Source: Rhizodiscina lignyota
Taxonomy: Eukaryota
DNA length: 64,000 nucleotides
Direction: 5' to 3'
NCBI GenBank assembly: GCA_010015805.1
Contig: ML978129.1
Span: 1,178,001-1,242,000 of the forward strand
Numbering within the stretch: position 1 is the first letter of the stretch; each line of letters opens with the position of its first letter. The position numbers and the translations under genes were made by a program. Shown here one piece after another: positions 45,110-45,717 of the stretch. The notes under the pieces are model-generated. The model did not search any database. It was not told the DNA's origin and saw nothing but the letters and a program-made list of their open reading frames with translations.

Positions 45110-45717
45110 TTATGATACCATGTCGCCTCCATCTATTAGGTCATCAGCATACAGCCCAATAGTTGCCCGTCAAGAATTACGTACCGGGGACTTCTCCTAC
45201 GGCAACAAATCGAGAGACCATGCTATCGCCATCTTCCTGATATCAGCAGGGCATGTGTAGAGACTTTAGGGTCAGAAACGTACCCGGTGTCTCTCCAACG
45301 GCGACAATGGGAGCCGCTTCTCGGCGGTACAACATTTTGTCCATGTCTGTCATAGTATGAGCAATTCATGGCCCAGTGACTGGAGGAAGCTCCTCGAACA
45401 ACACACCTGGCGACTCTCCAACTGCAACAGCCCGAGATACCATATTGTCTCCATCTGTGTTGCAATTAATTGTTAGAGCTCGTTAAGCAGCGGGAGCGCC
45501 GTTGAGTGCAGACGCACCTGGAGCCTGACCGACTGCTACGATGGGTTCTGCCTCTCGGCGGGAGACCATGTCTGTCTCGCCTAAATGGCTGTCAGTATTT
45601 GTGGAAGGCTTGCACCATACAGGCTGTGAACTGACTTAATGACTCTCCAACGACGACGAATGGTGCCGCTGCTGCAACGGCGAAGAGCGAGGCGAAAGCG
45701 ATTGCGATGAACTTCAT
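45110..45717 (-). CDS. Secreted Kex2-processed repeat peptide precursor (KEP), 108 aa, 6 exons, five 15-aa cores
   Basis: Exons 45717-45636, 45580-45518, 45454-45407, 45346-45284, 45232-45185 and 45132-45110, with GT-AG introns of 51-63 nt. Translation: MKFIAIAFASLFAVAAAAP-FVVVGESLSETDMVS-RREAEP-IVAVGQAPDGDNMVS-R-AVAVGESPDMDKMLY-RREAAP-IVAVGETPDGDSMVS-R-FVAVGEVPDGGDMVS*. Confidence 0.88.

Follow-up and report, generated by a model that had tools for sequence, protein, structure and literature searches.

Known repeat precursors and the Rhizodiscina lignyota locus

In secreted fungal peptide precursors, Kex2 cuts at KR or RR pairs, Kex1 strips off the basic residues, and Ste13 takes away X-A or X-P dipeptides (PMC6339444; PMC9769878). 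The yeast alpha-factor precursor (MFalpha1) and the alpha-type pheromone precursors of ascomycetes (Ppg1/Ccg-4 type) combine a signal peptide with tandem short peptides, dibasic Kex2 sites followed by X-A/X-P dipeptides, and Kex1 trimming, and their products are linear and unmodified (PMC6339444). Here we describe a locus that appears to share this plan and for which products of the same kind are proposed. It lies on the minus strand at 45717..45110 of a 64,000-nucleotide stretch of DNA from Rhizodiscina lignyota, a fungus of the Dothideomycetes, Aulographales (assembly GCA_010015805.1, contig ML978129.1, positions 1,178,001 to 1,242,000 of the forward strand). This whole stretch is referred to as the window. 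The locus is probably a new secreted peptide precursor gene, unusual in having one phase-1 intron per core and a mixture of dibasic and single-Arg junctions. With a probability of roughly 0.6, its product would be matured through the Kex2/Kex1/Ste13 route, in the manner of alpha-factor or of the fungal Kex2-processed repeat proteins (KEPs), to give linear acidic peptides.

In Ascomycota, the Ste13 signature is reported to occur "generally only" in alpha-pheromones (PMC6339444), and it is present here in the spacers RR-EA-EP and RR-EA-AP and in the A-P that follows the predicted signal peptide. Alpha-pheromone cores of Dothideomycetes are described as containing either two conserved Cys residues or a C-terminal PYGxPxG (PMC6339444), and the mature part of the R. 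lignyota protein has no Cys, Trp or PYG motif. The gene also differs from alpha-pheromone precursors in its acidic 15-residue cores without Trp or Cys, in the lack of a pro-region, in the single Arg at half of its junctions and in the intron that interrupts every core.

The KEPs, catalogued by Le Marquer et al. 2019 (1,193 in 250 species; PMC6339444) and Umemura 2020 (7,878 in 1,345 strains; PMC7329392), share with this locus a signal peptide (predicted here), repeated short cores, Kex2 sites and a stand-alone gene, and most of them are lineage-specific and of unknown function. The preliminary description of the locus had likened it to this group, and the likeness holds in part. A signal-like N-terminus, Kex2 sites and repeated cores are present, the five units having a pairwise identity of 40-80% (mean about 57%), which agrees with the repeated motif expected of KEPs. 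However, dibasic sites are present at just two of the four junctions, and the pipeline of Le Marquer et al. accepts a protein only if cutting it at all KR or RR pairs (else KK) leaves 4 or more fragments (PMC6339444). With two RR, no KR and no KK, the R. lignyota protein gives three fragments, or five if M-x-x-R is counted as a site. It further differs from the catalogued KEPs in lying outside the annotated proteomes, which were all that the two surveys searched.

Ustiloxin-type (dikaritin) precursors likewise carry a signal peptide and Kex2-separated repeats (PMC7329392). Unlike them, the gene has a Ste13 signature and no conserved Tyr in its cores, and neither DUF3328/UstYa nor accompanying tailoring enzymes were found nearby among the frames scanned with Pfam, namely 60 of the 116 frames of at least 70 residues in the 35.8-56 kb interval (omitting those nested in or opposite assigned frames) and 35 of the 56 frames of at least 150 residues across the whole window. 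The Rep1-type repellents of Ustilago are peptides released by Kex2 that remain on the hyphal wall and build amyloid-like fibrils. Ste13 signatures, such as the gene has, are reported to be absent from Rep1 and from cyclic-peptide precursors (PMC6339444). Outside the fungi, the precursors of ant hymenoptaecin and bee apidaecin contain the same RR + E-A-E-P cassette, and the same three-step, alpha-factor-like maturation has been proposed for them (PMC3415428). These precursors belong to another kingdom, their cores are unrelated and either much longer or Pro-rich and cationic, and the hymenoptaecin repeats lie in one exon; the likeness is thus one of mechanism only. A narrow literature search, which is not proof of absence, found no description of fungal precursors with an intron per repeat, and neither KEP catalogue uses the term "intron" in its main text, with 0 occurrences in each (PMC6339444; PMC7329392).

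Gene structure and predicted product

Joining the exons by script from their coordinates reproduced exactly the gene that had been proposed, with six exons, five GT..AG introns, a 108-residue product and five cores of 15 residues. Together the exons make up a reading frame of 327 nt, which opens with an ATG at 45717 and closes with TAA at 45112-45110; they are arranged as follows (all on the minus strand, in the order of transcription).

45636..45717, minus: exon 1, 82 nt; ATG, 17-residue signal-peptide-like N-terminus, A-P and codons 1-8 of core 1; ends in phase 1
45581..45635, minus: intron 1, 55 nt; GTCAGT...TAG; branch-like motif CTGAC
45518..45580, minus: exon 2, 63 nt, phase 1-1; C-terminal half of core 1, RR-EA-EP and N-terminal half of core 2
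45455..45517, minus: intron 2, 63 nt; GTGCGT...CAG; branch-like motif CTAAC and an in-frame stop inside
45407..45454, minus: exon 3, 48 nt, phase 1-1; C-terminal half of core 2, single R and N-terminal half of core 3
45347..45406, minus: intron 3, 60 nt; GTGTGT...CAG, with an in-frame stop inside
45284..45346, minus: exon 4, 63 nt, phase 1-1; C-terminal half of core 3, RR-EA-AP and N-terminal half of core 4
45233..45283, minus: intron 4, 51 nt; GTACGT...AAG; branch-like motif CTGAT and a rival CAG 4 nt before the acceptor
45185..45232, minus: exon 5, 48 nt, phase 1-1; C-terminal half of core 4, single R and N-terminal half of core 5
45133..45184, minus: intron 5, 52 nt; GTACGT...TAG; branch-like motif CTGAT
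45110..45132, minus: exon 6, 23 nt; C-terminal half of core 5 and the TAA stop

A branch-like motif (CTGAC, CTAAC, CTCAT or CTGAT) lies 10-25 nt ahead of the 3' AG in all five introns, and such splice sites and branch motifs are typical of short introns in filamentous ascomycetes. Without splicing the frame is closed, the stop-to-stop frames of exons 1 to 5 each terminating within the next intron. All five introns are in phase 1 and split a core at the identical place, after codon 8, and each internal exon consists of the tail of one core, a junction and the head of the next core. The locus is very probably a real, unannotated gene that is spliced as modelled.

Exons 2-5 are symmetric (phase 1-1, with lengths that are multiples of three), and therefore skipping or duplicating any one of them leaves the frame intact; skipping would yield in-frame chimeric cores. 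In the same region (45185-45580, minus strand), the exon lengths alternate as 63, 48, 63 and 48 nt, which suggests that the gene may have grown by duplication of a two-exon, two-core module. A comparable architecture is known from the micro-exon genes of schistosomes, in which small secreted proteins are encoded by series of tiny symmetric exons that can be skipped without loss of the frame. Organism and sequences are unrelated in that case, and the analogy concerns gene architecture only.

The predicted protein begins with M-K followed by 15 hydrophobic or small residues that end in A-A-A, and the A-P dipeptide comes next. Kyte-Doolittle means over 9 residues reach 1.7-2.6 across the first 17 residues, and there is no later hydrophobic segment. 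The signal peptide claimed in the preliminary description is therefore retained as a prediction, made from hydropathy and the -3/-1 rule only. The five cores start with [F/I/A]-V-[A/V]-V-G and end with M-V-S (M-L-Y in core 3), and the spacers ahead of them are, in order, AP, RR-EA-EP, R, RR-EA-AP and R. Although its codon varies, an Arg is present at every one of the four junctions, and the stop codon sits precisely where the other cores have the following Arg. The mature part, of 91 residues, has an isoelectric point of 4.1 and a net charge of about -10 and contains no Cys, Trp or His; Tyr occurs in one of the five cores. Cores 2 and 4 are 80% identical as protein and 69% identical as DNA.

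Predicted processing and the alternative of an intact protein

As had been proposed, the spacers RR-EA-EP and RR-EA-AP spell the textbook code for Kex2, Kex1 and Ste13 (PMC6339444), and RR followed by EAEP is also found in ant hymenoptaecin (PMC3415428). The N-terminus would send the protein into the endoplasmic reticulum, where signal peptidase would cleave near A-A-A. In the Golgi, Kex2 would then cleave after both RR pairs and might also cleave after the two single Arg residues, whose M-V-S-R context resembles an extended Kex2 motif with an aliphatic residue at P4; Kex2 is reported to accept a variable P2 if P4 is aliphatic (PMC8528282). Kex1 would trim Arg from the new C-termini, and a Ste13-type dipeptidyl aminopeptidase would take off the dipeptides A-P, E-A, E-P and A-P. 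By this scheme, core 1 would be released by signal peptidase and Ste13, cores 2 and 4 by Kex2 and Ste13, and cores 3 and 5 by Kex2 alone, and the C-terminus of core 5 would be set by the natural stop. Three N-terminal routes and a natural stop would thus converge on the same peptide ends.

The product would in either case be linear, unmodified and acidic, comprising five 15-mers or, without cleavage at the single Arg residues, one 15-mer and two 31-mers. Release of five separate 15-mers is possible, and we propose it only tentatively. As for the role of the peptides, extracellular signalling is our guess by analogy, preferred because Ste13 signatures in Ascomycota mostly belong to alpha-type pheromones.

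The alternative that survives best, which we nevertheless consider unlikely, is that the protein is secreted and acts uncut, as an acidic mature protein of 91 residues in which the RR sites are incidental or serve to remove only a part. Its units could then be beta-hairpin-like repeats, with an xVAVG strand, an E-x-P-D-G-D turn and an x-M-V-S strand, in a cell-surface, calcium-binding or amyloid-forming protein. D-G-D and P-D-G-D turns are indeed common in folded repeats, the hydropathy profile shows a regular alternation of hydrophobic and acidic halves, and a lone Arg, which does not make a canonical site for Kex2, stands at two of the four junctions. However, at the other two junctions the 5-residue insertions are exactly R + E-A + X-P, that is, the Kex2/Ste13 code, and the A-P start after the signal peptide and the end of the protein at a unit boundary would both be unexplained coincidences in a folded repeat protein. 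The convergence of the predicted peptide ends, together with an Arg that is kept at four junctions through different codons, thus favors a precursor over a folded repeat protein.

Selection on the repeat

When the five 45-nt cores were compared, the mean pairwise difference per site was 0.307 at the first codon position, 0.280 at the second and 0.633 at the third, and the number of invariant columns was 6, 6 and 1 of 15, respectively. The excess at third positions was matched by 6 of 100,000 permutations of the column labels. Leaving out Met and Trp, 76 pairs of codons specify the same residue, and in 50 of them the two codons differ. Synonymous divergence (dS, by the Nei-Gojobori method) is saturated in 8 of the 10 core pairs, and nonsynonymous divergence (dN) is 0.09-0.66 across all ten.

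At the DNA level, Tandem Repeats Finder reported no repeat with the period of the unit, only three short repeats of 7-12 nt. The introns align with one another at 46-58%, a value from forced global alignment with no random baseline that is read only as no evident similarity. With synonymous sites saturated, no DNA repeat of the unit's period and no evident intron similarity, the repeat is kept at the protein level only. We also scanned for the pattern that combines V-A-V-G-E-x-P with a GTnnGT junction. It occurs four times in the 64-kb window at up to 2 mismatches, all within the gene, compared to 0.00 times in 100 shuffles of the window. The repeat is thus an old duplication that purifying selection on this protein frame has maintained, which forms the chief reason for regarding the gene as functional, now or for long in the past.

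Coding on the antisense strand was also considered, since the antisense frame with shared codon boundaries has a peptide identity of 0.55, compared to 0.57 for the coding frame. It was rejected because that frame has a stop and because the variable position would be codon position 1.

It is improbable that the locus is a non-functioning one, either a silent relic or an intergenic stretch that can be spliced by chance, and was skipped by annotation for that reason. The absence of a homologue among the searches described below and of an annotated model agrees with such a view, and short GT..AG introns are easily found in any sequence. Nevertheless, neither a relic nor a chance stretch accounts for the rare third-position excess or for a dS that is saturated while dN is low. 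All five sets of splice sites and the frame are intact, while a relic would have lost the frame or the splice sites as its introns were randomised, and the junction motif did not occur in the shuffles.

Annotation and homologue searches

The annotated proteome of R. lignyota is in the protein collection, and the best match there of the neighboring DUF7053 frame (46401-47042, minus strand) is an NCBI entry, a hypothetical protein of this species, with 163 of 166 aligned residues identical; the three mismatches are the first three aligned residues, at the N-terminus of the annotated protein. This match assigns the window to R. lignyota or a near-identical strain. As the protein of the neighbor is in the collection and the gene itself is unmatched there, the gene is unannotated. 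The next relatives of the DUF7053 protein share just 71-72% identity with it and come from environmental contigs about 1 kb long. The R. lignyota lineage thus appears isolated in databases, with relatives existing in environmental data.

A profile of the repeat exons was built from four contiguous stop-to-stop frames, with intron read-through at their ends. Searched against proteins of 89-2000 residues, it gave 0 hits among 1887 candidates at E <= 0.01, and the frame of exon 1, searched against proteins of 73-2000 residues, gave 0 among 39 candidates at E <= 1; these queries are short and contain junk columns, so that distant relatives could escape them. Against 1.84 billion representatives, the sole match of the profile was one protein of 2010 residues (E = 1.9e-5). 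We judged this match spurious, as the protein has a bacterial look and is aligned on a different motif. The 2010-residue protein contains five near-identical units of about 140 residues and a C-terminal tail that is hydrophobic and then basic. This tail resembles a PEP-CTERM sorting signal, and the protein is unrelated to the gene.

Five core motifs of 5 residues are absent from the supplementary files of the two KEP catalogues that were covered (3 files, 732,332 characters, and 4 files, 89,120 characters), the longer of which may be truncated. The words "hidden" and "undescribed", which had been applied to the gene at the outset, are thus borne out as far as searched, namely in two very large protein collections and in these supplements. 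When metagenome contigs were searched for the junction pattern, 70 loci emerged with one match apiece, and D-G-D-x-M-V-S was found in 0 of the 70. In this set, 61 of the 70 loci have a GC content of 52-73%, and 6 of the 70 have one or two extra motifs of the xVxVG[EQD] type at a distance of 258-1188 nt. These matches were taken as chance.

Within the window, core-motif regular expressions run on all six frames detected no second copy of the gene, only three unrelated single matches besides it. Relic repeat units in the flanks were also considered and dropped, since local alignments of the exons to the 310 nt downstream and 383 nt upstream stayed within the range of shuffles (19 to 153 of 200 shuffles scored as high) and gave no decayed repeats.

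Several findings weigh against a functional precursor gene that is processed as proposed. No homologue was found in the protein collections searched, and thus there is no cross-species conservation; the published genome annotation is without the gene, and the signal of selection derives solely from comparing five repeats within a single gene. The gene model has sequence logic as its sole support, and its soft spot is intron 4, where the second of two near AGs has to be used; use of the earlier CAG would cause a frameshift and a stop after four codons. The GC content at third codon positions is 0.51 in the gene, compared to 0.56 and 0.62 in two neighboring frames. With regard to processing, canonical dibasic sites are limited to two of the four junctions; at the single-Arg ones P4 is occupied by Met instead of Leu, and cleavage at these is conjecture. 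Finally, the cores are unlike either type of Dothideomycete alpha-pheromone.

Implications for surveys of peptide precursors

KEP-like genes of unknown function are very common, and the interest of this one is that surveys based on proteomes can miss such genes. Because its repeats are spread over micro-exons and the gene was missed by annotation, the KEP catalogues and the RiPP (ribosomally made peptide that is modified after translation) mining derived from them may undercount genes of this kind. The locus is a clean case of the mixed dibasic/single-Arg design in a wood saprobe without close sequenced relatives. If the peptides exist, they would represent a new core family without Cys, Trp or Tyr chemistry, in contrast to the pheromones and dikaritins that are known. 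Should there be no such peptides, the locus would still be a useful test case for gene callers.

A more far-reaching idea, to which we give little credence at present, is that the gene is the first example to be seen of a fungal precursor class in which each core is split by a phase-1 intron, the micro-exons are symmetric (48 or 63 nt), and acidic 15-mers free of Cys and Trp serve as a new secreted signal. Were such a class to exist, its genes would be invisible to gene callers and hence to every proteome-based survey of KEPs or RiPPs, and duplication or skipping of exons could alter the number of peptides or create chimeric cores with the frame kept. One option for its function would be a non-canonical alpha-type pheromone of an isolated Dothideomycete lineage.

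Genomic neighborhood

A convergent frame at 43734-44297 (plus strand) and the co-oriented DUF7053 gene border the 2.1-kb gap that holds the precursor gene. The features on its upstream side are as follows.

45718..46397, minus: upstream intergenic region of about 680 nt to the stop of the DUF7053 gene; presumed promoter and 5' untranslated region
46398-47042, minus: DUF7053 gene (Pfam), directly upstream of the precursor gene

The convergent open frame encodes 187 residues and has no Pfam family above threshold, its sub-threshold match being ABM monooxygenase (E = 0.0046). Pfam families within about 9-10 kb on each side comprise BTB, KH-domain, CENP-K, Rhp7, a replication factor C subunit and zinc alcohol dehydrogenase. 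None of the Pfam-scanned frames contains DUF3328/UstYa, a tyrosinase, a methyltransferase, a P450, a prolyl oligopeptidase or a transporter, and the gene thus appears to stand alone, outside any RiPP cluster. The epithet "RiPP-like" in the preliminary description, which would lead one to expect UstYa/DUF3328, tyrosinase, methyltransferase, P450 or prolyl oligopeptidase genes nearby, was given up on this account. A RiPP precursor, whether of the ustiloxin/dikaritin type or another fungal one, is very unlikely: a signal peptide with repeated cores and Kex2 sites is the ustiloxin-type architecture (PMC7329392), but no tailoring family accompanies it here, the neighbors are of housekeeping type (BTB, DUF7053, Rhp7, the replication factor C subunit, KH and CENP-K), the cores have neither Cys nor Trp and, with one exception in five, no Tyr, and the Ste13 signatures are a feature that cyclic-peptide precursors are reported to lack (PMC6339444).

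In the upstream region, a single TGAAACA heptamer is located at 45888-45894 (plus strand), 171 nt ahead of the ATG. This heptamer is the pheromone-response element of yeast Ste12. It was not counted as evidence and is a weak hint only, since the window has 6 copies compared to 8.9 expected. A mitogen-activated protein kinase kinase kinase of the Ste11/Byr2 type, with a protein kinase domain and a Ras-binding domain of Byr2, is encoded at 56863-59268 (minus strand), 11 kb off. Kinases of this type act in yeast pheromone signaling, and the proximity is taken as coincidence.

Further away, glycoside hydrolase (GH) frames at 14854-23345 flank an Lgl-like WD40 gene, with GH2 at 14854-16503 (plus strand) and GH95 at 20749-23345 (minus strand), the latter split into two frames, presumably by an intron. 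This cluster of glycoside hydrolases is consistent with a wood-degrading lifestyle.

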